From positions 1-25,760 of the forward strand of contig JBKHIT010000065.1 of assembly GCA_046538485.1 (NCBI GenBank): a stretch of 25,760 nt of DNA, read 5' to 3'. Below the pieces are notes generated by a model, which had not been told where the DNA came from, did no database searches, and saw only the letters and a list, made by a program, of their open reading frames with translations. Shown one piece after another: positions 1,397 to 21,052 of this stretch; position 1 is the first letter of the stretch; every line of letters starts with the position of its first letter. The position numbers were made by a program, and so were the translations under genes. This stretch comes from Candidatus Brocadiia bacterium. Lineage in GTDB: Bacteria; Planctomycetota; Brocadiia; SM23-32.

Positions 1397-1476
1397 GTGG
1401 CATTTTACCCCTTGACGGACTCCGTTTACCCCCTATAATGCAGGATGAGCCGGGAAGCGAAGGGGCAAATTTCCCC
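1397..1476. promoter_or_regulatory. Two putative operator palindromes flanking the sigma70 promoter
   Basis: GTGGCATTTTACCCC (1397-1411, abutting the -35) and GGGGCAAATTTCCCC (1462-1476) both resemble the perfect palindrome GGGGCATTTTGCCCC at 7086-7100. Confidence 0.5.
1412..1439 (+). promoter_or_regulatory. sigma70 promoter of the H2-sensor operon
   Basis: TTGACG (1412-1417), 16-bp spacer, perfect TATAAT (1434-1439), about 70 bp upstream of the ATG at 1511. Confidence 0.75.
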
Positions 1477-1510
1477 GGCCGGCGGTTATATTAAGAGCGT
1501 TGGAGCGCAT

Positions 1511-2509
1511 ATGATAAAATTACTGTGGCTGCAGGCCAGCTGCTGTGGAGGAGAGACCGTCTCGCTGCTGAATGCGGAGCAGCCGGATCTTCTCACCACG
1601 TTTGATCTTCTCGGGGTGGACCTCGTCTGGCACCCCTCTTTCAGCCGGACACAGGGCGACGCAGCGCGGGAATTGCTGAACAAGTGTGTCAACGGCGAGA
1701 AAAACCTTGATATTCTTGTTATCGAAGGTGCCGTGCCGACCGGTGAGGATGAACGCCCCAGGGGGCTGGGACCTGAGGGACCGGGTATTGCGTGGCAGAT
1801 CGAACGGCTGGCCGGAGTTGCCAAACATGTCATGGCTGCCGGGACGTGCGCGTGTTTCGGGGGAGTGATGTGCGCGGGTTCAGGTCGCACCTCGGCCACA
1901 GGGGTGCAGTTTCAGCGTCAGGACTTCGGCGGACTTCTTGAACCAGATTTTCGGTCGGGAGCGGGTCTGCCCGTGGTGAATGTCCCGGGCTGTCCGGCGC
2001 ATCCGGACTGGATCACAGGAACGCTCACTGAGCTGGCCCGGGACAGCCTTCAGGAGAACGATCTGGACCAGTATAATCGCCCGCGGATGTTCTATTCTAA
2101 ACTGGCCCATCACGGTTGTCCGCGCAACGAATACTATGAATTCAAAGCTTCGGCCGAGAAATACTCCCAGCAGGGATGTCTGTTCGAAAATTTGGGGTGC
2201 AAGGGGACGCAGTGCGATTCAGATTGCAACGAGCGTTTATGGCTGGCTCGCACGGGCAGCTGCACCCGGGGGGGGTTCCCCTGTCTTTCGTGCACGTCGC
2301 CGAAATGGCCGGAAGGATTCGTGCCGTTCTTTGAGACCGAGAAGATCGGCGATGTGCCGACCACCCTCCCGCTCGATGTGCCGAAGGCCTGGTATGTGGG
2401 GATCAGTGGCCTCGCTAAACTTGCCTGCCCGGAAAGATTGTCTGTTAATGCCGTGAGTTTCAAACCAGTGGAGTCGGACGATGGGGACGAACAAGAATAT
2501 AGTGTTTAG
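1511..2509 (+). CDS. hupU: Regulatory (H2-sensing) [NiFe] hydrogenase small subunit, HupU/HoxB-like
   Basis: ATG at 1511 after GGAG (1502-1505). No Tat leader. Motifs LLWLQ, VEG-like IEGAV, GTCACFGG, VPGCPAHP, HGCPRNEYYEFK, GCLFENLGCKG, SCTRGGFPCLSC, and the HupU/HoxB-type C-terminal tail (LPLDVPKAWY...PERL). Confidence 0.9.
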   Translation: MIKLLWLQASCCGGETVSLLNAEQPDLLTTFDLLGVDLVWHPSFSRTQGDAARELLNKCVNGEKNLDILVIEGAVPTGEDERPRGLGPEGPGIAWQIERLAGVAKHVMAAGTCACFGGVMCAGSGRTSATGVQFQRQDFGGLLEPDFRSGAGLPVVNVPGCPAHPDWITGTLTELARDSLQENDLDQYNRPRMFYSKLAHHGCPRNEYYEFKASAEKYSQQGCLFENLGCKGTQCDSDCNERLWLARTGSCTRGGFPCLSCTSPKWPEGFVPFFETEKIGDVPTTLPLDVPKAWYVGISGLAKLACPERLSVNAVSFKPVESDDGDEQEYSV

Positions 2510-3917
2510 TCCGTTCACCCGGGTGGAGGGAGACCTGCGGCTGGGTGTGGAAGTTGAGGACGGGACCGTGGATTCGGCCCGCGCGTCCGGAACACTTTTT
2601 CGGAATTTTGAGAACCTTTTACGTGGGCGCGATCCCATGGATGCGATCGTGGTTCTCTGCCGGATTTGTGGTCAGTGTGGGGCGGCCCATTCCCGGGCGT
2701 CGGCCGGTTCTCTCGCCGATGCGTTCGGCGTTGAGCCACCAAAGAACGGTTTTCTTGCGGCGACAGTCATACAGGCGGCGGAATTTATTCTGAGCCATAT
2801 GGCGCACTTCTATTTTTCCTTTGCGCCGGATCTCTGTGGTCTCCCGGAACAGGAGGACCTCGAGGAACGGTTTGAACCCGTCCGGGGAAGTTCCTTTCGC
2901 CAGGCCGTCAAAGTCCGACGGACCCTGCTCGGGCTGATGGGGCTGTTTGCCGGAAAATGGCCCAATACTCTCGCCATCCAACCCGGTGGCGTCACGCGTC
3001 CTCTGACGGAAGGAGAACTCATCCGCTCAAAAGGGATTCTCGCCGAGTTTCAACGCGGGGTTGAAGGTAGTTTGCTGCGCGGTCGACTCGATGATTGGCT
3101 CGCTAATACCTGCTTTGAAGATGTTGAACGATGGTTGGAAACGGACGATCATTCCGAAAGCGATCTCGGTCTGCTGATCCGGCGAGGAATGGACAATGGT
3201 TTGACGGAGATCGGCAAAGGCCCGGCCCGGTTTCTATCGACCGGTTGTCTCGAATTGGGCCGGGGCGAAAGCTGGCTCAGAGCGGGATACCGAGACGAAG
3301 ATATTCGAGATCTGGAGGCGACGGCGATCACCGAGGATGTGGCATTTTCGTGGTTTGATTCCGGTGGAAAACACCCCTCAGAGCAGGGCACAATTCCCGC
3401 TCCGGACAAAAAAAAGGCCTACAGCTGGGCCAAAGCTCCCAGATACAAAGGAAAATCGGTGGAAGTCGGACCGCTCGCACGGATGGTGATCGACGGCGAC
3501 CCTCTGGCCCTGGACTTGAACGAGAAGTTTGGGCCCTCCGTTTTGACGAGAAGCGTGATGCGAATCCATGAGATGTTACGGCTCATGAAAGCTATGGAAA
3601 GCTGGATTGAAGAAATCGATCCCGAACGACCGTTCTGCCGCAGCGCCGACGTCTCCGGGATGGGCGAGGGTTGTGCTTTGACGGGAGCCCCCAGGGGCGT
3701 GCTCGGGCACTGGCTGCGGGTCGAAAAAGGACGGATACGCAACTATCAGGTGGTCACACCGACCAGCTGGAATCTGTCGCCCAGGGACTCAAACGACCAC
3801 CCCGGTCCTCTGGAAGAAGCCCTTGTAGGCACCCCGGTGGAGGATCCCGATCAGGCCACAAACGTCGCGCTGGTGGTTCGGTCGTATGACCCCTGTCTCT
3901 ACTGCAGTGTTCACTGA
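2481..3917 (+). CDS. hupV: Regulatory [NiFe] hydrogenase large subunit, HupV/HoxC-like (group 2b-type)
   Basis: PFTRVEGDL N-terminus, L1 RICGQC, GKWPNTLAIQPGG, YSWAKAPR, APRGVLGHW, PTSWN. L2 DPCLYCSVH ends at the stop with no cleavable extension, as in sensory hydrogenases. Confidence 0.92.
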   Translation: MGTNKNIVFSPFTRVEGDLRLGVEVEDGTVDSARASGTLFRNFENLLRGRDPMDAIVVLCRICGQCGAAHSRASAGSLADAFGVEPPKNGFLAATVIQAAEFILSHMAHFYFSFAPDLCGLPEQEDLEERFEPVRGSSFRQAVKVRRTLLGLMGLFAGKWPNTLAIQPGGVTRPLTEGELIRSKGILAEFQRGVEGSLLRGRLDDWLANTCFEDVERWLETDDHSESDLGLLIRRGMDNGLTEIGKGPARFLSTGCLELGRGESWLRAGYRDEDIRDLEATAITEDVAFSWFDSGGKHPSEQGTIPAPDKKKAYSWAKAPRYKGKSVEVGPLARMVIDGDPLALDLNEKFGPSVLTRSVMRIHEMLRLMKAMESWIEEIDPERPFCRSADVSGMGEGCALTGAPRGVLGHWLRVEKGRIRNYQVVTPTSWNLSPRDSNDHPGPLEEALVGTPVEDPDQATNVALVVRSYDPCLYCSVH

Positions 3918-3929
3918 GCGAGGATTTCA

Positions 3930-5216
3930 ATGCCGAGCAAGGTATCTCAATGGGAAGCGCAGGAAAGTGTCTGGGTGCAGATTATCCAGCAGATGGAGGA
4001 ATTGTACGCGCAGCTGGCGGATTCTCAAGCGGAAATTGAACGACACGCCGAAGAACTCAGAGATGCCAAAAAACTTGTCGATAATATCATCCGTAGCATG
4101 AGCGATGTGCTGATCGCAGTCGATTCCTCCGGGACCATCACTCTGGTGAACGAGGCCGTCGACCGGTTGTTCGGTTTTTCCGAGGAAGAGTTGGAAGGAG
4201 CAACTCTGGCAAAACTTCTTCCGGGGGAAGCGCAAAAGCAGAAATGGAGCTGGCCCCGGCTCAGCCGCAGGATCCGAAAAAGCGGTTCGTTGCGCGAGGT
4301 GGAAACGCGCTGGCAGGCCCGGCGCGGAAACCTCATACCCGTGGGGGTCACGGTGTCTGCCCTGAGGGACGAGTGGGAGGAAGTTGCCGGGGCGGTGCTT
4401 GTGGTTCGGGATCTGAGGGAGCGCAAACGCCGGATAGCTGAGGCCCAGGCCGCCACCGCCGCCGCCCGTGAAAAAGCCAGGGAACTTGAAGAAGCAAACG
4501 AAAACCTGAAACGACTTCAGGACGAACTCGTCCAGGCTGCCAAAATGAGTTCTCTTGGCCGGCTGGCGGCCGGGGTGGCTCATGAACTCAATAATCCCCT
4601 GGGCGGCATTATGCTCTACAGCGACCTGCTGCTGGAAGATATTCCAAAAGGGGATACCCGGCGCCCCACGGTCGAGAAGATCGCCGACCAGACCAGTCGT
4701 TGCCGCAGTATTGTGCAGGACCTGCTGGAATTCTCTCGACCTGCCCAGGCTGCCTCCCGACCCGTCGATATCAATTCCTTGCTTGAGGAAGCCGTGAATA
4801 TCCTCGAAGGACAACAGGTGTTCCACAATGTCTCAAGCCACTGGAAACTGGCCGAGGAAATCCCCTCGCTGACCGGGGACCCCGACCGGCTCCGGCAGAC
4901 GTTCCTTAACATAGTCCTGAATGCCGTCGAAGCGATGGAAGGAAAGGGAGAACTGTATCTCCGGACAAGCGTCAAGGATGGCAAAGTGACGATCGAAATC
5001 CAGGATTCAGGCTGTGGTCTCACCGAGGAGCAACAGGAACATCTTTTTGAGCCGTTCTACACGACAAAAGAGACGGGAACGGGGCTCGGATTACCAGTCA
5101 CCTACGGGATAATCGAACGACATGGCGGGGACATCGAAGTCGAAAGTGAAAAAGGTCAGGGTGCAACTTTTCGAATCAGCCTCCCCCTGACCGAGGAGGG
5201 CGAAAGGGATGAATGA
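3930..5216 (+). CDS. hupT: PAS-domain histidine kinase, HupT/HoxJ-like
   Basis: N-terminal VWVQIIQQMEELYAQL...SMSDVL typical of HupT/HoxJ; PAS domain; H-box LAAGVAHELNNP; N-box NIVLNA; DSGCG, FEPFYTTK, GTGLGL. Directly follows hupUV. Confidence 0.85.
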   Translation: MPSKVSQWEAQESVWVQIIQQMEELYAQLADSQAEIERHAEELRDAKKLVDNIIRSMSDVLIAVDSSGTITLVNEAVDRLFGFSEEELEGATLAKLLPGEAQKQKWSWPRLSRRIRKSGSLREVETRWQARRGNLIPVGVTVSALRDEWEEVAGAVLVVRDLRERKRRIAEAQAATAAAREKARELEEANENLKRLQDELVQAAKMSSLGRLAAGVAHELNNPLGGIMLYSDLLLEDIPKGDTRRPTVEKIADQTSRCRSIVQDLLEFSRPAQAASRPVDINSLLEEAVNILEGQQVFHNVSSHWKLAEEIPSLTGDPDRLRQTFLNIVLNAVEAMEGKGELYLRTSVKDGKVTIEIQDSGCGLTEEQQEHLFEPFYTTKETGTGLGLPVTYGIIERHGGDIEVESEKGQGATFRISLPLTEEGERDE

Positions 5217-6573
5217 AGGCGGCAGAGTGCTCGTTGTCGATGACGAAGAAGTTATCCGGGATAGCTGCCGGGAAGTGCTCGAGCGCGAGGGGCTCAGTGT
5301 GGCAGAAGCCGAAAATGCACCCGCAGCTCTCAACGTTCTCGACCAGGAGAGATGGGACGTGGTGCTTCTCGACCTGAAAATGCCCGGGGTCAGCGGTCTG
5401 GAAGCCCTTAAAAAAATCAAAAATCGTGATAGCGAACCCGTAGTAATTATCATTACCGGCTACCCGAGCGTCCAGACCGCCGTGGAAGCTATGAAATGGG
5501 GAGCGATGGATTATCTGACCAAACCGTTTGATTGCGAAAAGCTTACGGCGACGGTCGGTCGGGCACTGGCACGCCGAGACCTGGAGTTGAGCAGCTATCC
5601 CGGAGAAAGAGGCGCGGAAGATCAATCCCCGAGCGGCTCCATGCTTGTGGGGGAAACACCCCAGATCAAAGAGATCCGCTCCCTGATCAAACAGGTGGCG
5701 GAGACAGAAAGTACCATTCTGATTATGGGGGAGAGCGGGACCGGGAAAGAAGTGGTCGCGCGAATGCTCCACCAGCAAAGCGCCCGGAGCGATGAACCTT
5801 TCGTGGTCGTTGACTGTACAACGCTGGTAGACTCACTGGTGGAAAATGAGCTGTTCGGCCACGTCAAAGGGTCGTTCACCGGAGCCTCGGAAACGAGACG
5901 TGGGCGATTCGAGATGGCCGAGGGCGGCACGCTGTTTCTGGACGAAGTGGGCTCAATCGACAAAGGGTTGCAGTCGAAATTGCTGCGCGCAATTGAACGA
6001 GGAGAAATCGTGCGGGTCGGGTCGAACGAAGCTATCCACGTCGACGTCCGTGTCATCGCGGCCTCCAATACCGATCTTGCACGCGCCGTGGAGGATGGTG
6101 AGTTCCGGGAAGATCTCTACTATCGCCTGAGCGTCGTTCCGATTGTGCTCCCGCCGTTGCGGCAAAGAAAAGAAGATATCCCGCTGCTGGCTCGCCATTT
6201 TCTTGAACTTCATGCCGAAAACCGCAAACGAGATGTCCGTCGGATTAGCGATGACGCCATGGATGTTCTTAAAGCACACGATTGGCCCGGGAACGTGCGC
6301 GAACTCTCCAATGCCATCGAACGGGCCGTGGTGCTTGCGGAAGGGGAAGAGATCGTCCCCCAGCTGCTTCTCCATTACGGGTTTACCTACAGTCCCGACC
6401 GCGTTCGGAGTGACGCGGATGTGCCGACACTTGAAGAACTGGAAGAGCGTCACATCCGCCGCGTTCTCCGCCGCACCGGCGGCAACAAAACACGCGCGGC
6501 CGAACTTCTCGGAATCGACCGTAAGACGATCTACCGGAAACTTCAGCAGTTTGAAGAAGAGGAATCGGGCTGA
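5209..6573 (+). CDS. NtrC-family sigma54-dependent response regulator (REC-AAA+-HTH)
   Basis: REC (VVDDE, LDLKMP, KPF); Walker A GESGTGKE; GSFTGA; FLDEVG; FREDLYYRL; WPGNVREL; Fis-type HTH GGNKTRAAELLGIDRKTIYRKL. Overlaps the kinase stop. Confidence 0.95.
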   Translation: MNEGGRVLVVDDEEVIRDSCREVLEREGLSVAEAENAPAALNVLDQERWDVVLLDLKMPGVSGLEALKKIKNRDSEPVVIIITGYPSVQTAVEAMKWGAMDYLTKPFDCEKLTATVGRALARRDLELSSYPGERGAEDQSPSGSMLVGETPQIKEIRSLIKQVAETESTILIMGESGTGKEVVARMLHQQSARSDEPFVVVDCTTLVDSLVENELFGHVKGSFTGASETRRGRFEMAEGGTLFLDEVGSIDKGLQSKLLRAIERGEIVRVGSNEAIHVDVRVIAASNTDLARAVEDGEFREDLYYRLSVVPIVLPPLRQRKEDIPLLARHFLELHAENRKRDVRRISDDAMDVLKAHDWPGNVRELSNAIERAVVLAEGEEIVPQLLLHYGFTYSPDRVRSDADVPTLEELEERHIRRVLRRTGGNKTRAAELLGIDRKTIYRKLQQFEEEESG

Positions 6574-6890: not shown

Positions 6891-7063
6891 TACCAGAGTG
6901 TGATCTTTCCGGGCTGAAGCTCCCCTCTGGTCCTGCGCACGATGGAGGGCTGCGCCCGCCCGGTGCGGCGTGGAGTGGCGAACCGTTTCCCCGCCGACAG
7001 GTGGTCGACGGAGAAGCCAAACGACGGATCACAGTTCCATCCGCAGTTTATGGGCGTAAAAGC

Positions 7064-7101
7064 GGGGCAGCGCGCCTCGGGGGCCGGGGCATTTTGCCCC
7101 G
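7064..7101. promoter_or_regulatory. Putative tandem enhancer (UAS) sites for a sigma54 activator
   Basis: Perfect palindrome CGGGGCA-TTT-TGCCCCG (7085-7101) and a degenerate copy GGGGCAGCGCGCCTC (7064-7078) offset by 22 bp, about 260 bp upstream of a -24/-12 promoter. Confidence 0.55.
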
Positions 7102-7359
7102 ATCTGGGGTCGTGGTCGCCGGAGACGTTGTCGGCTTCCGGAACCCGTGGCCCGGCTGAACTCCAGGCAGCTATCTCTTCGAGAGATGCCTGTGCGGCGC
7201 GATAGCGAAAGCCTGGCTTTATGATGTAAGTAATGTTCGAACAAGGGCTTAGCAGCCACCACCACGCTGCGGAATCCGGCAAAAACCGAAAAGCCTTCCC
7301 GCCCGTCGGGCTGCCGAGCCTCTCCATAACTGCCTTTTCGATTCTATTTTGGAATCCCC

Positions 7360-7375
7360 TGGCGTGGATTTTGCA
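7360..7375 (+). promoter_or_regulatory. sigma54 (-24/-12) promoter
   Basis: TGGCGTGGATTTTGCA: GG (7361-7362)-N10-GC (7373-7374), close to the TGGCAC-N5-TTGCW consensus, 70 bp upstream of the ATG at 7445 and downstream of a sigma54 activator gene. Confidence 0.75.
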
Positions 7376-7444: not shown

Positions 7445-7840
7445 ATGAGCGAAAATCGAAGGAAAATACTCGTCGTGGACGACGATGAGGACTATCAGGC
7501 CGCGGTAAGAAAGATTCTGGAGGACGCGGGCTACGAGGTCGTTTCTGCTTTCAATAAACAGGAGGGGCTGAAATCGCTGCACACCGATGATCCCGACCTT
7601 CTCATCCTGGACATCATGATGGATAAAAGCACGGACGGGTTCTTTTTCCTGTATGAGATGGGTGAAGAGGAAGGAATGGAGAGGCCCCCCGTGCTGTCGG
7701 TCAGCGTAATAGAGGAAGAAACAGGAATGGATTTCTCTCCGACTTCCGATGAGGATTATTTTCCCGCCGATGATTTTCTCAGCAAACCCGTGGATCCCGA
7801 AGAACTCATCTCCCGAGTCGAAAAGTTGCTGTCCCGGTGA
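7445..7840 (+). CDS. Single-domain response regulator (REC)
   Basis: ILVVDDDED, LILDIMM phosphoacceptor, FLSKPV; GAGGGG RBS. Confidence 0.92.
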   Translation: MSENRRKILVVDDDEDYQAAVRKILEDAGYEVVSAFNKQEGLKSLHTDDPDLLILDIMMDKSTDGFFFLYEMGEEEGMERPPVLSVSVIEEETGMDFSPTSDEDYFPADDFLSKPVDPEELISRVEKLLSR

Positions 7841-7880
7841 AATTGTGATCGGATTGCGCAGGAACAACGAGTGAACAAAT

Positions 7881-9065
7881 ATGCTGACGGTTCTTGAATC
7901 AATGGGCGATATAAACCAGTCAATCGAAACCCCGGTACAAACGGCGATCCCGCGCGACGAAGACAAGAAGCCGGGTCGTAAGGTACTTGTGGTGGATGAC
8001 GATCAGGCGATGCTGGATTCCTGCTCGGAGGTTCTCGAGCGAGAGGGATTCGATGTTATTGGATGTGGCAGCGGCGAAGAAGCTCTCAAGACCATGCGCG
8101 CCATCGGGCCAGATATTTTGATCATAGACCTTAAAATGCCGGGAATGTCGGGCGAAGAGTTTCTCAAGAAAGCCAAAGAGGTTGACTCCCAGGTGGTGGC
8201 CGTGGTGGTGACCGGCTACCCGGAACTCAGTTCCGCGGTGGAGGTTATGAAAGCGGGAGCGTCGGATTTTCTGCCGAAACCTTTTGGAGCGGAGGAGCTG
8301 CGTATCGTGACCCAACGCGCCATGGAGAAACGCGAACTGGCGCTTCAGGTCGCTGCAGGGCGGAGAGAAAAACAACGCATGCACGATAACTTCGCGGCGA
8401 TGATCTCCCATCAGCTCAAATCCCCCGCGGCCTGTGTGAAAGAATGCTTGGACGTGGTCAGACATTCCTTCAGCGATCGTATGCCGGAAAAGTGCACGGA
8501 GCTTCTGGACCGCGCCGCCGCGCGATCGCAGCTCCTGCTGGACCTCATGGACGACTGGCTCTCGCTGGCTCGTGTGGAATCCGGACAGCTCAAGGAATCG
8601 GATGAATGTGTCGACCTGGCCGAGGTTGTGGAAGAAGCTGTCAGCGCGGCTGAAGACGGCCACGAGGGGCCCGCAGCAGATGTTGCTATCGAATCCCGGG
8701 CAGAAGAGACTTCTGTCCGTGGCGATGCCGACGCGCTTCGGGAGATGGTCTTCAATCTTGTCGATAATGCCATGCGGTATACACCCGAAGAGGGGCGTGT
8801 GGAGGTGAGAACCGAAGCCGCCGGCGATGAAATTATTGTGGAGGTCGAGGACAACGGGCCCGGTATCCCGCGCGAAGAAGTCGAAGTGATTTTCGAGCCA
8901 TTTCACCGCGGCAAAAGAGGCCGTGGAAAACAGGGCACAGGGCTCGGTCTGGCGATTGTGAAACAGATTGCGCTCGCCCATGGCGGGCGAGTGGAAGTTG
9001 AAAGTGAGAACGGACGCGGGACCACCTTTGCCGTTCATTTACCCGCTGAGGGGAGTGGAGCATGA
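7881..9065 (+). CDS. Hybrid REC-histidine kinase without a sensor domain (start could be 7902)
   Basis: REC (VVDDD, IDLKMP, KPF); H-box ISHQLKSP; NLVDNAMRY; DNGPGI; GTGLGLAIV. Confidence 0.92.
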   Translation: MLTVLESMGDINQSIETPVQTAIPRDEDKKPGRKVLVVDDDQAMLDSCSEVLEREGFDVIGCGSGEEALKTMRAIGPDILIIDLKMPGMSGEEFLKKAKEVDSQVVAVVVTGYPELSSAVEVMKAGASDFLPKPFGAEELRIVTQRAMEKRELALQVAAGRREKQRMHDNFAAMISHQLKSPAACVKECLDVVRHSFSDRMPEKCTELLDRAAARSQLLLDLMDDWLSLARVESGQLKESDECVDLAEVVEEAVSAAEDGHEGPAADVAIESRAEETSVRGDADALREMVFNLVDNAMRYTPEEGRVEVRTEAAGDEIIVEVEDNGPGIPREEVEVIFEPFHRGKRGRGKQGTGLGLAIVKQIALAHGGRVEVESENGRGTTFAVHLPAEGSGA

Positions 9066-10937: not shown

Positions 10938-10953
10938 GGTGAAAAACAGCGAA

Positions 10954-12407: not shown

Positions 12408-12409
12408 AA

Positions 12410-12856: not shown

Positions 12857-13310
12857 AGGTTTCGAACAGATCATTCGCCAGAACCTCGAGGATATTGCTC
12901 GGGAAATCGAGGTCCACGCTCCGGAGCGGATCTACGTGGAAGTGGGGCCTGATGATCTTCTGGATGCTGCCGGCCGGCTTTTCCAGAAACTGGGGGCCCG
13001 CTACGCCATCGCCTCGGGCACGCATATCGAGAACGGCTTTGAAGTTCTCCACCATTTCGCGTTCGACGGGGAGGGAGGCCTGGTCAGTCTGCGGGTGCGG
13101 ACCGAAGAGGATCCCCCCGAGTTCGACTCCCTCGCCCCGATGATCAAAGGAGCCCGTTTCATCGAGCGGGAGATCCATGATCTGCTCGGGATCCGGTTCC
13201 GGGGTCATCCAAATCTCACGCGGCTTATCCTGCCGGAAGACTGGCCGGACGATGTCTATCCGCTCCGACAGGGCAAGCCCTGGGAAGGAAAGGTGAAAAA
13301 ACAGATATGA
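12849..13310 (+). CDS. NuoC/MbhK-like subunit
   Basis: EREIHDLLGIRFRGHPNLTRLILPEDWP...YPLR. Confidence 0.92.
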   Translation: MNEGFEQIIRQNLEDIAREIEVHAPERIYVEVGPDDLLDAAGRLFQKLGARYAIASGTHIENGFEVLHHFAFDGEGGLVSLRVRTEEDPPEFDSLAPMIKGARFIEREIHDLLGIRFRGHPNLTRLILPEDWPDDVYPLRQGKPWEGKVKKQI

Positions 13311-14494
13311 CCACATCCACCATACCAATAGGGCCGTTTCACCCGCTCCAGGAGGAACCCGAGCTGTTCCGACTGCACGTGGATGGGGAGACGGTCGTTG
13401 ATGTGGACGTTGAGATCGGATGGAACCATCGCGGCATCGAAAAGGTCTCCGAGGGCAAGACTTTTGATCAGGTGCCTTTTCTGGTGGAAAGAATCTGCGG
13501 GATCTGTTCGACTTCCCACCCGATCGCCTATGTGCAGGCGGTGGAGGATGCCGGGCACCTCGAGGTGCCCGAACGGGCGCTCTACATCCGCAGCATCATC
13601 GCGGAACTGGAGCGTCTGCACAGCCATCTGCTATGGGTGGGTTTGGCCGGCCATTTCCTCGGTTACAACACGGTTTTCATGTGGGCCTGGAAATACCGTG
13701 AGCCCGTTCTCGATATCTGCGAAGAACTGACGGGCAACCGGAACAATTACGCCATGATCAAAGTCGGCGGAGTCCGACGGGATCTGGACGAGTCGAAGTT
13801 TCCCGGAGTTCTGGGTCGTCTTGACGAACTCGAGAAGAAAGTCAAGATGCTCGCCGGGGCAGTTACCGATGATCCTGTCCTGCACGCCCGTCTCAAAGGA
13901 GTGGGCGTTCTCACCGAAGAGGCGGCGAGAGATTACGGGGCGCTCGGGCCCACCGTACGCGGCAGTGGCATTCCCTGGGACGTGCGAGCCGACGAACCAT
14001 ACGCAGCCTATGATCTCGTCGATTGGGATATCATAACGGCCCCTTCCTGCGATGTTTACGGGCGTGCTGTCGTGCGGGTGCTGGAGTGCTTCGAGTCGAT
14101 CGAGATCATCCGCCAGTGCTTCGAAAACATGCCGGAGGGCGATATTGATGCGAATGTGACCGAGATACCGCCCGGGGAAGGCATCGGTCACGCCGAAGCT
14201 CCCCGGGGTGAGACGTTCCATTACGTGCGCTCCGACGGGACCAATCAGCCCGTCCGCCACAAAGCCCGGGCGCCGACATACATGAATCTGCCGACCTGCT
14301 ACGAGACCGTGGTGGGCGAGTCGGTGACGGATGCCACAATTATCCTCGCATCGGTCGATCCGTGTTATAGTTGCACCGAGCGGATGGGTGTTGTCTACGA
14401 TGCTTCGAGCGGCGAGCGACTTCTTGATGGCAAAGAACTCGTGAGACTTTCGCAAGAGAAAACCGAGGCCCTACGAAGGGAGATGGGGAGATGA
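13307..14494 (+). CDS. Group 4 membrane-bound [NiFe] hydrogenase large subunit (MbhL-like, NuoD family)
   Basis: PIGPFHP, HRGIEK, intact L1 ERICGICS and L2 DPCYSCTER (four Ni-ligating Cys), EAPRGE, 36-aa C-terminal extension. Confidence 0.93.
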   Translation: MTTSTIPIGPFHPLQEEPELFRLHVDGETVVDVDVEIGWNHRGIEKVSEGKTFDQVPFLVERICGICSTSHPIAYVQAVEDAGHLEVPERALYIRSIIAELERLHSHLLWVGLAGHFLGYNTVFMWAWKYREPVLDICEELTGNRNNYAMIKVGGVRRDLDESKFPGVLGRLDELEKKVKMLAGAVTDDPVLHARLKGVGVLTEEAARDYGALGPTVRGSGIPWDVRADEPYAAYDLVDWDIITAPSCDVYGRAVVRVLECFESIEIIRQCFENMPEGDIDANVTEIPPGEGIGHAEAPRGETFHYVRSDGTNQPVRHKARAPTYMNLPTCYETVVGESVTDATIILASVDPCYSCTERMGVVYDASSGERLLDGKELVRLSQEKTEALRREMGR

Positions 14495-16329
14495 ACGCTG
14501 AGACTGCAATGCACCTCGCCGTAACCGTACCCTTCGCAGCGGGGCTTCTGTGCATTCTGATGCCCCGTCGGGTGAGCCTGTTCCACAAGGTTCTTGCGAT
14601 TTTGACCTGCGCCGCCGTGCTCTCAGGGACCGTTGTGCTCTACGGCATGGAAGATGTGGTGAAAGCACCGGAATGGGCCGGCGAACGTGTTCTTCTCGGG
14701 CTGGACGGGCTCAGTTCCATGATCCTCGTGGCGGCCGCCGGCTTTTCATTCCTCATGGTCCTTTACTCCGTCGGCTTTTTGTCGGACGAAGAGGTGAATC
14801 CGAGGCCGTTTTACGCGAATATCCTGTGGGCTGTGGGGTGTGCCTGTGCAACAATCCTCGCCCGGGACCTGCTGGTTCTGCTATTTTTCTGGGGATTGAT
14901 GGGGATTCCATTTTTCCTTCTGATCAATCTCGGCCCGAAGGACCCCGGTGCGGCCGCAAAGAAAACTTTGATTGTGCTGGGGGGAAGCGATTCGCTTTTG
15001 ATTCTGGGGATTGCGATTATCCCGATGCTCTCGGGGAGTTTCGACATCCTTCAGGATCCCCTTCCACTGCAGGGAATATCGGTGGTGGCCTGCCTTTGCC
15101 TGGCTGTGGCGGCCTTTGCGAAAGCGGGAGCCATGCCGTTTCATTCGTGGGTCCCGGACGCGGCGGAGAAAGCCCCCGTGCCCGCTGTTGCGTTGTTACC
15201 GGCTTCGCTCGATAAACTGCTCGGGATCTATCTTTTTGCCCGGATCTGCCTGGATATGTTCCGGATAAATGACGAAATGAGATCTCTGTTTATGCTGGTG
15301 GGCGCTTTCACGGTGATGGCGGCGGTGATGGCAGCTTTGCAGCAGCATAACCTGCGTCGTCTGCTCGGTTACCACGCGGTCAGCCAGGTTGGCTACATGG
15401 TGCTGGGAATCGCCAGCGGCACGGCCCTCGGGGTGGTCGGAGGACTGTTCCATATGCTGAATAATGCAATCTACAAATCCTGTCTGTTCCTCGGAGCCGG
15501 TTCGGCTGAGAAACGATCCGGCACGGGAGAGCTGGATGAGATGGGGGGGATGGCGCGGGCGATGCCCGTGACGTTCGTGTGTTTCTTAATTGCAGCATTG
15601 GCTATTTCCGGCGTTCCCCCGCTGAACGGGTTCGTCTCCAAATGGATGATCTACGGCGGGTTGGTGGATCAAGCGGGAGAAGGCGGATATCTGTGGGTGA
15701 TTGGCCTGATTGCGGCAATGTTCGGCAGCGCCCTGACTCTGGCGAGTTTCGTCAAGGTGCTTCATGCCGTCTTTCTCGGTCGGTCGCGCGAGGGAGCGAG
15801 CCATGAAGGGCCGCTTCCCAACACGGCCATGGTGCTGCCCATGGTGGTGCTGGCGCTCGTTTGCGTTGCATTCGGCGTTATGGCGTTCGTTCTGCCGGTC
15901 CAGAACATCCTCCTCCCGGCAGTCCCCGAAGCCCTGCGTCCTGAGATGGCCGGGGCCGCCTGGGATCCGGGTCTGGGGACCATCCTTCTGGTGGTGGCGC
16001 TTCTGTTAGGAGCGGGCGTGTACCTCCTCGGACGCGGTTTCAAGGTTCGCGAGGACGAATCTTACATGGGAGGCGAAATCGGAGAACGAGCGGCACCCTA
16101 TCGTTTCAGTGGCGTGGATTTCTATCAGACAATTTCTTCAAAAGTTCCCTCCCTGAAAACACTTTATAAGGATGCTGAGGAAGGCTGGTACGACATTTAC
16201 CGGCTCGGCCAGAGGTTCATGGAATGGATCGCGGTTCCTCTGAAGAGCTTTCATTCGGGATTGTTGCTGACGTATGTGGCGTGGTGTGTGCTGGGCCTTA
16301 TCGGCTTGTTGTGGCTGTTCCTGCATTAG
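14491..16329 (+). CDS. Large antiporter-like membrane subunit (NuoL/MrpA type)
   Basis: KAGAMPFHSWVPDA, LLGYHAVSQVGYM, HMLNNAIYKSCLFL, GVPPLNGFVSKW, plus a C-terminal lateral-helix/last-TM-like region (HSGLLLTYVAW). Confidence 0.9.
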   Translation: MNAETAMHLAVTVPFAAGLLCILMPRRVSLFHKVLAILTCAAVLSGTVVLYGMEDVVKAPEWAGERVLLGLDGLSSMILVAAAGFSFLMVLYSVGFLSDEEVNPRPFYANILWAVGCACATILARDLLVLLFFWGLMGIPFFLLINLGPKDPGAAAKKTLIVLGGSDSLLILGIAIIPMLSGSFDILQDPLPLQGISVVACLCLAVAAFAKAGAMPFHSWVPDAAEKAPVPAVALLPASLDKLLGIYLFARICLDMFRINDEMRSLFMLVGAFTVMAAVMAALQQHNLRRLLGYHAVSQVGYMVLGIASGTALGVVGGLFHMLNNAIYKSCLFLGAGSAEKRSGTGELDEMGGMARAMPVTFVCFLIAALAISGVPPLNGFVSKWMIYGGLVDQAGEGGYLWVIGLIAAMFGSALTLASFVKVLHAVFLGRSREGASHEGPLPNTAMVLPMVVLALVCVAFGVMAFVLPVQNILLPAVPEALRPEMAGAAWDPGLGTILLVVALLLGAGVYLLGRGFKVREDESYMGGEIGERAAPYRFSGVDFYQTISSKVPSLKTLYKDAEEGWYDIYRLGQRFMEWIAVPLKSFHSGLLLTYVAWCVLGLIGLLWLFLH

Positions 16330-16341
16330 GAGACCGGACAG

Positions 16342-16905
16342 ATGGTAAATCTGCTGATTCTGCTGCTGGTTTTCATGATCATCGCGGCGGTGATCGCGCT
16401 GTGGACCGAAGATTTGCTCTCGAGTGTCATTGCCGTCGGCGCCGTGGGTTTTGGCAGCAGTGTGGCATTTCTATTGCTCAGTGCGCCCGACCTGGCGATC
16501 ACCCAGATTGTGGTGGAAGTGCTGACGCTGGTGCTGTTGATCCGCGCGACGGTAGGCAGAGATGTCAAAACCACCTCGGGTTCCCGCGATGTTTTCGGAC
16601 TGGCGGTCTCGGGGGCTCTCGTGTTGATACTGCTCGTGTTCGCGGTTCAGACAGCCCAGTCTCTGCCCGAATTCGGCCAACGACCTCCGGTAGCGAGAGA
16701 AGCAGCCCCGGCCGCGCAGTATCTGACCGATGGATTGGATAAAACCGGATCGGCAAACATCGTAACCGCCGTCTTACTGGACTATCGGGCCTATGACACT
16801 CTGGGGGAAGCCACGGTGCTTTTTGCGGCGGTCGTCGGCGCAATGACGTTGCTGCGCAGGAGAAGCCGGAAAGAAGAAACTCCCGCTGAGGAGGAACAAA
16901 CATGA
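16342..16905 (+). CDS. MbhD/MbhE-like fusion (DUF4040 plus MrpA C-terminal/MnhB-related domain)
   Basis: APDLAITQIVVE and NIVTAVLLDYRAYDTLGEATVL. Confidence 0.88.
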   Translation: MVNLLILLLVFMIIAAVIALWTEDLLSSVIAVGAVGFGSSVAFLLLSAPDLAITQIVVEVLTLVLLIRATVGRDVKTTSGSRDVFGLAVSGALVLILLVFAVQTAQSLPEFGQRPPVAREAAPAAQYLTDGLDKTGSANIVTAVLLDYRAYDTLGEATVLFAAVVGAMTLLRRRSRKEETPAEEEQT

Positions 16906-17375
16906 GGGACCGCAGTCTGGTTGTGGAGACAGTCTGCCGATGGATAGCACCTTTCATACTGCTCTATGGGGTTTACGTGGTGGCTTTTGGCCATCTCTCT
17001 CCCGGGGGTGGTTTCCCGGGCGGGGTTGTGCTCGCATCGGCTTTCATCCTTATGGTCCTCGCCTGGGGTAAGGACAAGGCCACCCGACACCTCCCGTTTC
17101 ATCTCGCCGAGGGACTGGACAGTCTTGGAGCTCTTCTCTTCCTCGGCCTTGGCCTTGCCGGATTGGCAGGGGGATGGATGTTGACTAACTTCGTCCATCA
17201 AACGACTCCCGGCGGACGTTTCCGGTTGTTCAGCGCGGGAACGATTCCTCTGGCCAACATAGCAATCGCCCTCAAAGTTTGTGCTTCGCTCTTCCTGGTA
17301 ATGGTGGTTCTATCGGTTCTGCGGGTGAAGGCCGGGGGCACGAACGAAGATCTTCGCACACAACAGGAGGTTTGA
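16902..17375 (+). CDS. mnhB: Mrp antiporter subunit B (MbhF-like)
   Basis: GHLSPGGGFPGG motif; 4 TM segments. Confidence 0.9.
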   Translation: MRDRSLVVETVCRWIAPFILLYGVYVVAFGHLSPGGGFPGGVVLASAFILMVLAWGKDKATRHLPFHLAEGLDSLGALLFLGLGLAGLAGGWMLTNFVHQTTPGGRFRLFSAGTIPLANIAIALKVCASLFLVMVVLSVLRVKAGGTNEDLRTQQEV

Positions 17376-17378
17376 AAC

Positions 17379-17729
17379 GTGGTTTACATTCTCTGCCTGG
17401 CTCTGCTGCTGGTGGGTTTGTTTGGCGCCCTCACGCAAAAGAATCTCATCAAGATTATCGTAAGCGTTGCGATCATAGAATACGCGGTCAACCTGTTCCT
17501 CGTGCTCGTGGGGTTCCGGGTTGGCGGTCAGGCCCCAATCCTGACCTACTCGGAAATGCCGGCGGCCCAATGGGCTTCGGGAACAGTCGATCCGTTCCCG
17601 CAGGTAATGGTTTTGACGGCGATAGTGATCGGACTCGGCGTTCTGGCTTTGATGGTGGCCCTTGCGCTCCGTATCTATCATCGACATGGCACCTACGATG
17701 TGACCGAAATCCGCAAACTTCGCGGATAA
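17379..17729 (+). CDS. mnhC: Mrp antiporter subunit C (MbhG-like)
   Basis: NLIKII, DPFPQVMVLTAIVIG; GTG start after GGAGG. Confidence 0.92.
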   Translation: MVYILCLALLLVGLFGALTQKNLIKIIVSVAIIEYAVNLFLVLVGFRVGGQAPILTYSEMPAAQWASGTVDPFPQVMVLTAIVIGLGVLALMVALALRIYHRHGTYDVTEIRKLRG

Positions 17730-17737
17730 GGGAGTAA

Positions 17738-19318
17738 ATGATGAACCTGATACCTTTGATGGTCGGTATTCCGCTCGGCGCCGGTTTTGTGCTGGCTCTG
17801 ATGCCAAAAAGTAAACCCCGTATTTCCGATTTGCTGGCGAACGCGGCGGCTGTCAGTCTCGTGTGCCTGGCAATGGCGCTTCTGGGGCGAACCGCAGTTT
17901 ACAAACTGGGTGGCTGGCCTCCGCCGCTGGGGATAAACCTTGTGCTGGACGGGCTGAGCTGGCTGATGCTGGCAATCGTCTCGGTGATAAGTTTTGCCGC
18001 CACGCTTTTCAGCGTCTACTACATGGACCGCTATACCGGCCGTCCCCGGTATTATGCGTTGTTCATGCTGATGCTGGCCGGTATGAACGGGGCCATCCTC
18101 TCGGGAGATATGTTCAACCTCTATGTTTTTGTGGAAATTGCCGCCGTCTCCTCCTACGCCCTGGTGGGATTCGGATGTCAGGAGGAAGAACTTGAGGCGG
18201 CGTTTAAATACGCCGTCCTCGGAGCCGTTGCTTCGGCGTTCATTTTGCTCGGCGTCGCCGTTCTGTACTGCCTCTACGGCACGGTCAACATGGCCCATCT
18301 GAGCCGGCAAATGGCGGGAGTCGAGGCCGAAAACATGCCACGGATATTTGCGCTCTGTCTTCTCCTGGTAGGACTCGGGTTGAAATCGGCCCTCGTGCCG
18401 TTTCATGCCTGGTTGCCGGACGCACATCCGTCGGCGCCGGCTCCCATCTCGGCTATGCTTTCCGGCGTGTTGATCAAAGCCATCGGCGTTTACGCCCTTA
18501 TCAGAGTGATGTTCAGCGTCTTCGGCATAACGCCGGAAGCGGCTCAGGCCCTGATGTGGCTCGGGACTCTGTCGATGGTCGTGGGTGTTGCGCTGGCCCT
18601 GGCCCAGTGGGATTTCAAAAGATTGCTCGCCTATCACAGCATCTCTCAGATTGGATACGTAATCCTGGGTGTCGGAGTGGGAGGCTACCTCCTGGCGAAA
18701 CAGCATCAGGAAACCGTTGCAGCCCTGGCAATCGTGGCGGGCCTGTTCCATCTGATCAACCATGCAGTCTTTAAATCACTCTTGTTCTTTACAGCGGGTT
18801 CCGTGGAATACCGCACAGGCACACGAGAGCTTAAAGAACTCGGAGGACTTCGAGAACGGATGCCGGTTACCGGCGGAGCTTCCCTCGTCGCTTCTCTTTC
18901 GATAGCCGGTGTGCCTCCTTTCAACGGATTCGTGAGCAAGCTGATGATTATTTACGCCTGCGTGCATGCCCATCGTTACGGCTATGCATTCTGGGCAGTC
19001 GTCGTCAGCATCCTGACCCTGGCCTCTTTTATGAAGGTCCAGAAATACGCGTTCTTCGGCAAACTGCGCGAAAACTGGCAAAAAGTGAGAGAAGTTCCGT
19101 TCCTGATGTGTGCTGCCATGGTTCTTCTATCGCTTTTATGCCTCGGGATGAGTCTGCTCGCGATTCCGAGCGCAAGGGCGACGGTGCTTGATCCCGCGCA
19201 GAAAGCACTTGCCGGCCGCAACGACTATGTGCAAAGCGTGCTGGGGAAAGAGACGCGGGCGGAAAAGGACACGAACAGAATTCAAACAGCGGAGACCGAA
19301 CCATGGGACGAAGATTAG
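17738..19318 (+). CDS. mnhD: Mrp antiporter subunit D (MbhH-like)
   Basis: GGWPPPLGI, DMFNLYVFVEI, KSALVPFHAWLPDAH, KRLLAYHSISQIGY, GVPPFNGFVSK. Confidence 0.92.
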   Translation: MMNLIPLMVGIPLGAGFVLALMPKSKPRISDLLANAAAVSLVCLAMALLGRTAVYKLGGWPPPLGINLVLDGLSWLMLAIVSVISFAATLFSVYYMDRYTGRPRYYALFMLMLAGMNGAILSGDMFNLYVFVEIAAVSSYALVGFGCQEEELEAAFKYAVLGAVASAFILLGVAVLYCLYGTVNMAHLSRQMAGVEAENMPRIFALCLLLVGLGLKSALVPFHAWLPDAHPSAPAPISAMLSGVLIKAIGVYALIRVMFSVFGITPEAAQALMWLGTLSMVVGVALALAQWDFKRLLAYHSISQIGYVILGVGVGGYLLAKQHQETVAALAIVAGLFHLINHAVFKSLLFFTAGSVEYRTGTRELKELGGLRERMPVTGGASLVASLSIAGVPPFNGFVSKLMIIYACVHAHRYGYAFWAVVVSILTLASFMKVQKYAFFGKLRENWQKVREVPFLMCAAMVLLSLLCLGMSLLAIPSARATVLDPAQKALAGRNDYVQSVLGKETRAEKDTNRIQTAETEPWDED

Positions 19319-19815
19319 CCACATTTGTTTTCGCATTTCTCGCGTGGTGCCTGCTGGCCTGGCCCTACGGTGAGGCGGCCGGCGGTTGGGATATGCAAAT
19401 CTTGATCGTCGGGCTCGGGGCTGCGCTGCTCGTCGCTCTTATCTGCGGGGAAGGTCTGGGCGATAAATCGCTCCAGCTCTTCAATCCCGTCCGGTGGTTC
19501 TGGTTGCTGTGCTACATTCCGGTCTTTGCATACTACTGCGCGAAAGCCAACCTGCAGGTGGCGTACCTCGTTTTGCACCCCGAGATGCCCATCAAGCCGG
19601 GAATAGTGAAGGTGAAAACGCGGCTTCAGAGCAAGGCGGCCCTGACGGCCCTGGCGAACTGTATCACGCTGACCCCGGGAACGCTAACTGTTGAAATGGA
19701 AGATGACGGCACGCTTTACGTCCATTGGATCGAGGTCAAATCGACACAAGAAGACGAAACGAGTGCTGAAATTTGTGAGAGGTTTGATGGTTTCCTGAAA
19801 AAAATTATGGAGTAG
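19303..19815 (+). CDS. mnhE: Mrp antiporter subunit E (MbhA-like)
   Basis: PIKPGIV, LANCITLTPGTLTV, LYVHWI. Confidence 0.93.
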   Translation: MGRRLATFVFAFLAWCLLAWPYGEAAGGWDMQILIVGLGAALLVALICGEGLGDKSLQLFNPVRWFWLLCYIPVFAYYCAKANLQVAYLVLHPEMPIKPGIVKVKTRLQSKAALTALANCITLTPGTLTVEMEDDGTLYVHWIEVKSTQEDETSAEICERFDGFLKKIME

Positions 19816-19855
19816 AAATCCTGCTTCGGCACGCAAAAAAACAGGCTGGACTATC

Positions 19856-20122
19856 ATGGAAGAGATCATATACACCGGTTTAGCGGTTCTGGTGGTCGCA
19901 AGCTACCTCTGTCTGTACAGGATAGGGCGTGGTCCCACGGCGCCCGATCGCACCGTCGCGATCGACATCCTCGGTGTCATCCTCGTGGGCTTCTGCGCAC
20001 TCCTGAGTGTCCTGACGGGCAAAGGTTTCTACATCAGCGTGGCGCTGGCCTGGGCGCTGTTGAGTTTCATCGGGACGATTGCCCTGTCGAAACACCTGGA
20101 GGGGAGAGGCTTCGATGAATGA
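19856..20122 (+). CDS. mnhF: Mrp antiporter subunit F (MbhB-like)
   Basis: GPTAPDRTVAID, LSFIGT; 3 TM segments. Confidence 0.92.
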   Translation: MEEIIYTGLAVLVVASYLCLYRIGRGPTAPDRTVAIDILGVILVGFCALLSVLTGKGFYISVALAWALLSFIGTIALSKHLEGRGFDE

Positions 20123-20459
20123 ATACATAGGTTTGGCCATAATCGCCGTTGGACTACTGTTCGATCTTTTCGGCTGCATCGGGCTTGTGCGGCTGCCCGA
20201 CCTCTACACCCGCCTTCAGGCGGCTACCAAGACGGTGACGCTCGGGACGTGTCTGATTCTGATCGGGACCTGCATCTATTTCGGTTTCGGCAGCATCGGT
20301 GCGAAGGCCCTGCTTTGTATGGCTTTTGTTCTGGTGACTTCCCCCACGGCGGCCCATGCGATTGCGCGGGGGGCTTACGAAGCCGGCATAAAAATGCAGG
20401 AACCAACGGTCGTCAATCAATACGAGGATTCTCGGTCACAAAAACAAGAGGCTGAATGA
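20115..20459 (+). CDS. mnhG: Mrp antiporter subunit G (MbhC-like)
   Basis: GLVRLPDLYTRLQAATK, SPTAAHAIARGA; ATG 20115 overlaps the end of mnhF. Confidence 0.93.
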   Translation: MNEYIGLAIIAVGLLFDLFGCIGLVRLPDLYTRLQAATKTVTLGTCLILIGTCIYFGFGSIGAKALLCMAFVLVTSPTAAHAIARGAYEAGIKMQEPTVVNQYEDSRSQKQEAE

Positions 20460-21052
20460 TGCGTGCTCCCAAACTGCGTGAGCTGAAGGAAGCCATAATC
20501 GCTCTTATCAAAGGGCCTTACACGGCCAGTTTCCCGGCCGAACCGACACCGCTGCCCGAAGCGTTCCGAGGATGCCCGCGTTTTGATGAAGAGAAGTGTG
20601 TCGGATGTGGCGCATGCACGAATGTCTGTCCCACGGGTGCCTGTGCGATGGAGGATGATCCTGAATCCCGCACGCGCCGTATCACCATTCGCCTCGACCG
20701 ATGCATCTTCTGCGGACAGTGCCATGCCAACTGTCTCACCGAAGAAGGTGTTACGCAGACCGCCGAATACGATCTGGCAACAACCGATCGGAGCGAGTTG
20801 CACGAGGACATTGAGAAGGATCTGATCCTCTGTGAGACATGCGGTGCGGTTATTGGAGCCGAAGATCACATCCGCTGGGTCGCCGATCAGCTCGGGCCGG
20901 TGGCATTTGCCAACCCGACGCTACTTCTGAGCAAAATGCGCGATCTGGAAGCCGTCGACGAACTCCCGGAACCGTCCGAGGATTTGCACCGGGCCGACCG
21001 ACTCCGCATCACCTGCCCGAAATGCCGTCAGACGACCTCTCTGCTGGCCTGA
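20456..21052 (+). CDS. 2x[4Fe-4S] ferredoxin-like subunit (NuoI/MbhN/HycF-like)
   Basis: GPYTASFP, FRG, CVGCGACTNVCP, CIFCGQCHANC, plus extra CETC and CPKC pairs. Confidence 0.92.
   Translation: MMRAPKLRELKEAIIALIKGPYTASFPAEPTPLPEAFRGCPRFDEEKCVGCGACTNVCPTGACAMEDDPESRTRRITIRLDRCIFCGQCHANCLTEEGVTQTAEYDLATTDRSELHEDIEKDLILCETCGAVIGAEDHIRWVADQLGPVAFANPTLLLSKMRDLEAVDELPEPSEDLHRADRLRITCPKCRQTTSLLA

Follow-up and report, generated by a model that had tools for sequence, protein, structure and literature searches.

The [NiFe] hydrogenases described as H2 sensors control uptake hydrogenases of Proteobacteria, as far as the accessible parts of the literature go. In the closest described circuits, HoxBC-HoxJ-HoxA of Cupriavidus necator and HupUV-HupT-HupR, such a sensor acts through a kinase and a sigma54 activator on the group 1d/3d uptake enzymes of aerobes. 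For fermenters and syntrophs, only putative [FeFe] sensors are discussed in the accessible literature, with neither a defined regulator nor a defined operator; these group C enzymes (HydS/C1), whose known cluster is expressed at high H2, are unrelated to the [NiFe] sensors but are likewise proposed to sense H2 and retune fermentative hydrogenases. The Hun complex, a 16-subunit group 4g [NiFe] hydrogenase–Mrp supercomplex with AsrAB-like HunAB (bioRxiv 10.1101/536078, available part), belongs to a type common in anaerobe genomes (group 4g with Mrp; PMC8542988 and PMC9324843, in their accessible text), and the role of group 4g is listed as undetermined in HydDB Table 1. In Rubrivivax, where HupUV and a group 4 enzyme are both present, the two were assigned to separate regulators (accessible text of PMC4257681). 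Here, we describe a 25,760-nucleotide stretch of DNA ("the window"; contig JBKHIT010000065.1 of a Candidatus Brocadiia bacterium) in which a sensor module of the HoxBC-HoxJ-HoxA kind stands before a Hun-type operon and, judged from sequence, very probably controls it.

Gene identities rest on Pfam and NCBIfam scans of 24 open reading frames (ORFs) of the window, and locus counts on a metagenome scan for sensor loci in which 149 stretches were confirmed and 80 kept. Small and large [NiFe] subunits, a PAS kinase and a REC-sigma54-Fis activator are followed, after an 871-nt gap, by 18 further genes. The sensor module and the sites around it are as follows:

1412..1439, + strand: sigma70-type promoter of the sensor operon, TTGACG-16-TATAAT, 11/12 matches
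1461..1477, no strand: lone copy of the activator's putative binding palindrome, 15.4 bits, just 3' of the sigma70-type promoter
1511..2509, + strand: small subunit, HupU/HoxB-like; Tat leader absent ahead of the first cluster motif; HoxB-type tail LPLDVPKAWYV at the C terminus; CGGE, not CGGC, as proximal motif
2481..3917, + strand: large subunit, HupV/HoxC-like; four Ni cysteines, no C-terminal extension; Gln/His/Ser at HoxC I62/Q67/F110
3930..5216, + strand: soluble histidine kinase; HoxJ/HupT-type N-terminal helix WVQIIQQMEELY, PAS, coiled coil, HisKA (His218), HATPase
5209..6573, + strand: sigma54 activator, REC(Asp55)-AAA+(GSFTGA)-Fis; 48% to ZraR, 38% to HoxA
7063..7101, no strand: putative tandem palindromic enhancer, CGGGGCAGCGCGCCTCG and CGGGGCATTTTGCCCCG; copies 7063-7079 and 7085-7101, 22-bp period
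7242..7251, no strand: IHF-like site YAA-N4-TTR (presumed consensus)
7360..7375, + strand: sigma54 -24/-12 promoter TGGCGTGGATTTTGCA, predicted start near 7386

An earlier note on this DNA had begun the small subunit at 1397; that frame stops at 1436-1438, and the likely start is the ATG at 1511, with alignments to four relatives beginning no more than five residues from it.

Candidate control sites of the operon lie in the 871-nt gap. A de novo search recovered a GGC-N5-GCC dyad in 15/21 regions, against a shuffle maximum of 9 (Gibbs information 17.3 vs. 10.4-11.2); its consensus is YG(G/T)GGC-N5-GCC(C/A)CR, and it is usually tandem, with a 20-22-bp period across regions. Tandem periods of 20-23 bp were allowed, as a fixed 21-bp pattern misses the window. 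With a matrix made from 22 sites of other lineages, the window, G003 and G026 being left out, the best single site of the host genome (G000) was 7085 (23.9, next 18.3) and the best pair 7063/7085 (34.0, next 20.6). No such enhancer was found at the other hydrogenase operons of this genome. The earlier note had spoken of enhancer-like palindromes without locating them: a conserved tandem enhancer does stand at 7063-7101, but the GGCT-N4-AGCC palindromes (7246, 7309) are peculiar to the window, occurring in 0/27 relative regions, and were rejected as the enhancer. An inverted repeat at 7374-7404, not seen in relatives, was rejected likewise; with perfect 10-bp arms and an 11-nt spacer, it lies over the -12 element and the predicted start and may be an extra operator.

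The -24/-12 promoter that the note had also read there was borne out at 7360-7375. Taken alone, the window's box is weak, with 62 genome positions equal or better, but the strict sigma54 pattern occurs in 14/28 upstream regions where 0.31 are expected, and a relaxed box stands directly 5' of the first operon gene in nearly all regions. YAA-N4-TTR, which we take to be the IHF consensus, was found 107-120 nt 5' of the sigma54 box in 10/21 regions (1.5 expected). At the other end of the module, a palindrome of >12 bits lies near the small-subunit start in 18/24 loci, compared with 35/1600 random windows, and sigma70-type boxes similar to the window's are visible 5' of the small subunit in relatives; the site at 1461-1477 is probably an autorepression site.

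The enhancer also follows the sensor and its target across genomes. Pair scores were 27-43 in 17/17 non-Aerophobetes-like loci with a downstream operon, a partly circular count given that some of these loci trained the matrix, and below zero in four loci without one. One of these four, L093, has a divergent Hdr/Mvh operon with a sigma54 box and a pair of sites, separated by 23 nt, in front of it. When sensor and Hun lie on separate contigs, as in G026, the tandem site is found 5' of Hun and none is found 3' of the activator. Within the order, a Hun-type subunit is present in 19/32 genomes; the exact tandem pattern occurs in three of the 32, precisely those with both sensor and Hun, and in 0/16 Hun-bearing genomes that are sensor-negative. 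Fourteen Hun regions were fetched from 13 of these 16 genomes, nine of them extending 5' of asrA, and no enhancer was found in these nine (best single score ≤9.2), five of which show sigma70-type boxes by eye; L160 carries a weak sigma54-like box. Because a conserved enhancer and promoter co-occur with the sensor, we consider the predicted wiring of the sensor module to the Hun operon highly probable.

Several observations weigh against this conclusion. Pair scores are weak (9-20) in the nine Aerophobetes-like loci, the exact tandem pattern was partly derived from the same three genomes in which it is found, and the metagenome loci are mutually related and are not independent counts. In addition, G006 has a close Hun copy (82%) and no sensor was found there, while G013 has the sensor and no Hun was found (66% complete). 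In G009, REC and REC-kinase genes stand 5' of Hun without a sensor, which cautions against over-reading synteny. Divergent Hun operons in L050, L061 and L063 have sigma70-type promoters and Rex-like boxes and were rejected as sensor targets, having neither enhancer nor sigma54 box. The Rex-like boxes there, TTGTGA-N6-TCACAA by a consensus we assume, lie within L050 4736-5748, L061 8709-8909 and L063 5720-5921 and suggest NADH/NAD+ control of Hun at these loci.

We next consider what else the cassette controls. The kinase lies 3' of the large subunit in 62/62 metagenome loci with room for it, and the activator is in place in 38/40. Thirty-six loci have a full activator, six are too short downstream, and 26 of the 30 assessable ones run into a co-oriented operon, which a receiver gene opens in all but one case. 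These operons are NuoE/NuoF-headed (12), Hdr-headed (three) or AsrA(B)-headed (seven, with a group 3b-like enzyme in the five that reach that far), or combine AsrAB with Hun (two, L079 and L106); the remaining two are cut off. In G032, Hdr/NuoEF stands in place of Hun, and in G439, a NuoEF-headed operon goes on to HdrA and a VhuA-like enzyme. The conserved synteny anticipated by the earlier note is present, with an identical 22-gene order in G003 and sensor plus AsrAB/Hun in L079 and L106. Its claim that the sensor controls a group 4 enzyme holds for the window as far as enhancer, promoter and co-occurrence go, but group 4 is a minority target (2/26 metagenome loci plus three genomes of the window's family), the others being 3b or Mvh/Hdr/NuoEF. 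Judging by gene order, group 4 is one of several targets: depending on the relative, the cassette stands in front of a group 3b, an Mvh/Hdr-NuoEF or a Hun operon. One homologue cluster is from Aerophobetes. The system is rare, with 4/32 genomes in the order and 7/401 in a phylum sample at a looser cut-off that takes in other subgroups. Two features of the surrounding genes were also seen: a CBS-HATPase gene, possibly a post-translational regulator, recurs 3' of nuoF in the NuoEF-headed operons of L047, L070, L081 and L086, and in L047 (805-7339) genes for a prismane-family CO dehydrogenase, a CbiA/ParA-family ATPase, a ferredoxin and NuoEF-like proteins are divergent from the sensor.

With C. 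necator HoxBCJA as the reference for the sensor parts, the locus shares with HoxBCJA/HupUVTR the absence of a large-subunit extension, the small-subunit tail, the kinase input helix plus PAS and the sigma54 output. The sensor hydrogenase is 39-46% identical to group 2b regulatory hydrogenases and all four Ni cysteines are invariant. Its L1 motif CRICGQCGAAHS and L2 motif SYDPCLYCSVH, the histidine of L2 being the last before the stop, do not match the PRICGICSVSQS / SFDPCMVCTVH signature of four 2b references (2b motifs, including Gln for His, are given in the accessible text of PMC5665086). In a 44-row alignment of large subunits, the HoxC I62 position is Gln in 37/44, the Q67 position His in 43/44 and the F110 position Ser in 35/44, so that the bulky Ile/Phe gas-channel residues expected of 2b (PMC11023054, available part) are replaced in the window and in most of these rows. 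The proximal-cluster motif is CGGE in 43 of the 59 small subunits with the region present, compared to CGGC in 2b. In a FastTree tree of 89 large subunits with Shimodaira-Hasegawa (SH) supports, the RICGQCG..H clade (SH 99) falls outside canonical 2b (SH 100), which is the nearest named group; both join further anaerobe lineages under an SH 97 node, inside which the branching order is unresolved and which stands apart from 2a-like and 2c-like rows. Since its active-site motifs are not those of 2b and it has its own clade in the tree, the sensor is, on this evidence, a separate anaerobe clade near 2b and not a canonical 2b; so it would work like 2b without being a canonical member.

The putative group 2c, linked to diguanylate cyclases in HydDB Table 1, resembles the sensor in its anaerobe/sediment hosts, in an acidic proximal-motif residue (CGGD in 2c-like rows) and in a BLAST score close to that of 2b, BLAST barely parting 2b from 2c-like (39.5% vs. 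37.8%). The 2c-like rows, assigned by a motif quoted in the accessible text of PMC4853749 and not by a verified 2c reference, nevertheless lie on another branch and differ in having mostly C-terminal extensions, a different tail and kinases without the HoxJ helix. The 2c L2 motif SFDxCLVCTVH from the same source is not matched by the window sensor, and its neighbours are a kinase and an activator instead of a diguanylate cyclase; one GGDEF gene lies upstream, in G026 only among the loci scanned. Other output arrangements were observed around related enzymes. At L138 (10548-16743; G432, of an anammox-containing family), the genes after a related sensor encode an Hpt-containing hybrid kinase and a REC-HD-domain protein, with no sigma54 activator, and at L041 (9442-16099) and L143 (8093-15260), 2c-like hydrogenases stand before hybrid kinases and either a REC-SpoIIE phosphatase or a REC-nucleotide cyclase, with no diguanylate cyclase.

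In the HoxBC-HoxJ system, the small-subunit tail and the kinase N-terminal helix have a role in hydrogenase–kinase docking. The window kinase's helix is the sole match of the HoxJ N-terminus in the genome, helices of this type occur in 68/73 kinase rows, and the spacing from helix to PAS is 41 residues, the same as in HoxJ, whose insertion after the H box the window kinase lacks. The linker from PAS to the phosphoacceptor His measures 57 residues in the window and in 43/63 rows, compared with 43 in HoxJ and one HupT; the difference is exactly two heptads, which keeps the HoxJ coiled-coil register (modulo 7). Kinases with a 56-residue linker (L050, L056, L059, L061, L063, L068, L111, L113, L114 and L117) could by the heptad rule have the opposite polarity. 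In L044, L080 and L093, PAS-less kinases pass directly from a HoxJ-type helix into HisKA, as minimal versions of the sensor kinase.

The activator is nearer to ZraR than to HoxA/HupR in all three domains. Its recognition helix, LG(I/V)xRKT in nearly all activators inspected, differs from LGLSRVGL of HoxA, its receiver has DLKMP and not the DQRMP of HoxA/HupR, and its REC-AAA linker has 70-72 residues compared to 89 in HoxA/HupR (about 18 longer there). In the tree, these activators form their own clade, separate from the HoxA clade (100/100 each). With ZraSR/NtrC1-type systems, the locus shares the tandem dyad enhancer, the IHF-like site, the -24/-12 promoter and putative autoregulation, and it departs from them in its input, a hydrogenase-docking kinase. 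From HoxBCJA/HupUVTR it departs in its own enhancer, in the four sensor genes forming one putatively autoregulated block and in its anaerobic group 3/4 targets. The family scans thus recovered the hupUV genes, hupT-like kinase and sigma54 activator named in the earlier note, albeit with a sensor that is not canonical 2b and an activator that is not HoxA-like.

These parts suggest the following mechanism. A cytoplasmic H2-sensing [NiFe] hydrogenase would dock through its small-subunit tail onto the kinase's N-terminal helix, by homology to HoxBC-HoxJ, and the kinase would phosphorylate the adjacent sigma54 activator. The activator would bind the tandem GGC-N5-GCC enhancer, and IHF-type bending would loop it to the -24/-12 promoter for transcription of the Hun operon; through the single site, it would repress its own sigma70 promoter, while the first two operon genes may serve as feedback, phosphate sink or relay. 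The operon would be on at low H2, when ion-pumping H2 evolution driven by NAD(P)H/ferredoxin pays, and off as H2 accumulates. ZraR/NtrC-type proteins are switched on by phosphorylation. HoxA, by comparison, is active when unphosphorylated, and HoxJ phosphorylates it without H2 (accessible text of PMC10073562). The low-H2 direction is therefore suggested by a kinase that keeps HoxJ polarity, being active without H2, and an activator that is conventional; that polarity is read from the two-heptad difference under a rule taken from YF1 (PMC6798134, available part). Such a response is also thermodynamically sensible for an enzyme that evolves H2 from NAD(P)H. We put the probability of the full mechanism, including activation at low H2, at roughly 0.5; given the wiring and H2 as the signal, we rate the low-H2 direction somewhat better than even. 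More broadly, and at a little under even odds, an undescribed [NiFe] H2-sensor lineage of anaerobes (Planctomycetota, Aerophobetes and others) may run the HoxBCJA circuit with its sign inverted, pairing a HoxJ-type kinase with a phosphorylation-activated sigma54 protein and its own enhancer; NAD(P)H-linked and ion-pumping hydrogenases would then be on only at low H2, and the cassette, shuffled in front of 3b, 3c and 4g enzymes, would act in interspecies H2 transfer as a switch with product feedback.

The direction is a two-step deduction, and a number of points count against it. The heptad rule was derived from YF1 and not from the window kinase, and the PAS-to-His linker is 56 residues in 10/63 kinases (29 in two). 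Grouping the activators as sister to HoxA/HupR was not rejected in an approximately unbiased (AU) test (p=0.21), so ancestry, and perhaps logic, may be shared with HoxA/HupR, and the firm claim that the activator is not a HoxA orthologue was dropped. Enzymes that work reversibly or usually oxidise H2 (Mvh/Hdr, group 3b) make up many of the targets, and both CGGE and the gas-channel Gln depart from the experimentally tested sensors. The opposite direction, in which H2 would turn the operon on through the same wiring, is thus a serious though less favoured possibility. Hun (3b or Mvh/Hdr in relatives) would then take electrons from H2 and pass them to NAD(P)+ and ferredoxin by reverse electron transport, or else use ion coupling to dispose of reductant when H2 is high. 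High H2 is the inducing condition in all characterised group 2b circuits, as far as the accessible literature shows, the Ruminococcus albus [FeFe] sensor cluster is expressed at high H2 (PMC6776011, available part), and VhuA-like and sulfhydrogenase-like enzymes are among the targets, in addition to the kinship with HoxA that the AU test allows. Induction by H2 would, however, need the activator or the kinase to act against its own sequence type, the former being without the HoxA/HupR receiver and linker features and the latter sharing HoxJ's register modulo 7.

The preferred reading, with H2 itself as the signal, also competes with one that accepts the wiring but takes the signal to be general redox state, reported by the hydrogenase (e.g., by exchange with ferredoxin at the level of its iron-sulfur clusters), or chiefly an input through PAS. 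The frequent CGGE and gas-channel Gln point this way; the invariant Ni cysteines, HypD and HypE in the genome, and the PAS-less kinases, which mark the hydrogenase-docking helix as the conserved input, make it unlikely. Mere adjacency, with the sensor controlling something else and Hun driven by another activator or the REC-kinase pair, occurs in L050, L061 and L063 with their divergent Hun operons, and G000 has at least seven other sigma54 AAA+ activator matches. For the window it is very improbable, as no site in the genome outscores its enhancer, which is found again at the sensor promoter, tracks the sensor across genomes and is absent from the other hydrogenase operons of G000.

The target operon spans 7445-21052 on the + strand and has 18 genes, one more than the 17 first counted; they comprise two signalling genes and a 16-subunit Mrp-linked group 4 complex, in the order REC, REC-kinase, AsrA-like, AsrB-like, ferredoxin, NuoH, B, C, group 4 large subunit, MrpA-like, MbhD/E, MrpB-G and NuoI:

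7445..7840, + strand: single-domain receiver; double receiver in relatives
7881..9065, + strand: REC-HisKA-HATPase hybrid; receiver helix 1 mimics the activator's
9062..11445, + strand: HunABC-like module; AsrA/HydB-like iron-sulfur protein, AsrB/HydG-like FAD/NAD(P) protein (10125-10937), polyferredoxin
11442..14494, + strand: NuoH-, NuoB- and NuoC-like subunits and group 4 [NiFe] large subunit (13307-14494)
14491..20459, + strand: Mrp-type membrane module, MrpA-like, MbhD/E, MrpB, C, D, E, F and G
20456..21052, + strand: NuoI-like ferredoxin subunit, HunP-like; final gene of the operon

Its tight coupling (intergenic gaps of -16 to +40 nt) and its nature as an Mrp-linked group 4 [NiFe] hydrogenase, both noted before, were upheld. 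The large subunit has both CxxC Ni motifs, RICGIC / DPCYSCTER, plus a 36-residue extension, and is Mbh-like, its closest solved chains being Pyrococcus Mbh and formate hydrogenlyase; complex I-like and Mrp subunits accompany it. Sixteen genes, an AsrAB-like head with an iron-sulfur protein, a NuoH/B/C/D/I-like core and an Mrp module are likewise those of Hun, and the presence of an FAD/NAD(P) subunit points to NAD(P)H as one partner of the complex. The operon differs from Hun in its two head genes, in the predicted sigma54 enhancer control, of which the available part of bioRxiv 10.1101/536078 makes no mention, and in an L2 motif with CYSC instead of CYCC, seen in the window, G003, G026 and all 14 family regions; CYCC is found in the 65%-identical copies of L061 and L063. 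A second Hun type (L148-L160, L079 and L106; large subunit about 60% identical) carries one more gene, roughly 1.7 kb long, between asrB and ferredoxin, as the available part of the Hun paper (bioRxiv 10.1101/536078) reports for some genomes. In L079, this gene is a 543-amino-acid ORF with no Pfam match at 1e-8.

Receiver helix 1 determines kinase specificity. In the REC-kinase hybrid, it matches the activator's at 10/18 positions, the next best of 33 genome receivers reaching 6, and cognate likeness exceeds non-cognate in 3/4 lineage groups. Because this helix resembles the activator's and sets kinase specificity, the sensor kinase probably acts on the hybrid as well, so that the operon would supply its own feedback element.

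While a group 2b-type sensor and the Hun complex are each already known kinds, what appears new is their coupling, together with the sensor clade, its operator and a possible reversal of sign. The earlier note knew of no characterised sensor–group 4 pairing and neither did the literature: a full-text search, with most subscription papers outside its scope, turned up no account of group 4 or anaerobic group 3 operons under the control of a [NiFe] sensor, nor of the clade or the enhancer. The locus is predicted to hold a complete, testable anaerobe circuit of sensor, kinase, activator, binding site and promoter, and suggests that such anaerobes govern their own hydrogen metabolism by measuring H2 directly, perhaps with the logic reversed. 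Tying an uncharacterised group 4g/Hun complex to an H2 signal means that the sign of the response would reveal Hun's working direction; if inverted, the circuit would be a natural low-H2 reporter and a clue to the evolution of HoxA's unusual logic. The gas-channel Gln and proximal-cluster Glu are natural variants of spectroscopic interest.

The window is an entire contig (C10) of the 5.19-Mb genome G000 (completeness 88%), and the named close homologues are from Planctomycetota. Hydrazine synthase was not found in G000 and is present in 2/3 tested genomes of a family of the same class, from which we infer a non-anammox member of an anammox-containing class. Elsewhere, the genome encodes rpoN, three HycI proteases and one HU/IHF-family gene besides HypD and HypE, together with one group 1-like and one group 3b-like hydrogenase; no [FeFe] hydrogenase was found in the 88% covered. 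An Rfam scan of the window at gathering threshold gave no match, a single-protein scan of genome contigs gave just five distant loci, and a viral-sequence scan gave none. In the 1.4 kb upstream of the sensor (1-1400), ORF 31-468 (145 amino acids) matched no protein family in Pfam/NCBIfam. Between activator and enhancer, a 56-amino-acid ORF (6720-6890, + strand) has a good ribosome-binding site, no homologue in the genome or fetched loci and no Pfam match. Downstream of the operon, 21285-21350 (+ strand) resembles a group II intron domain V/VI remnant (RF00029, 36.8 bits against a gathering threshold of 40, E 1.2e-5), and 21541-25320 (+ strand) encodes a 1259-amino-acid restriction-modification fusion (HSDR_N, Eco57I methylase and TaqI_C, with weak PglX-like matches) unrelated to the sensor finding.

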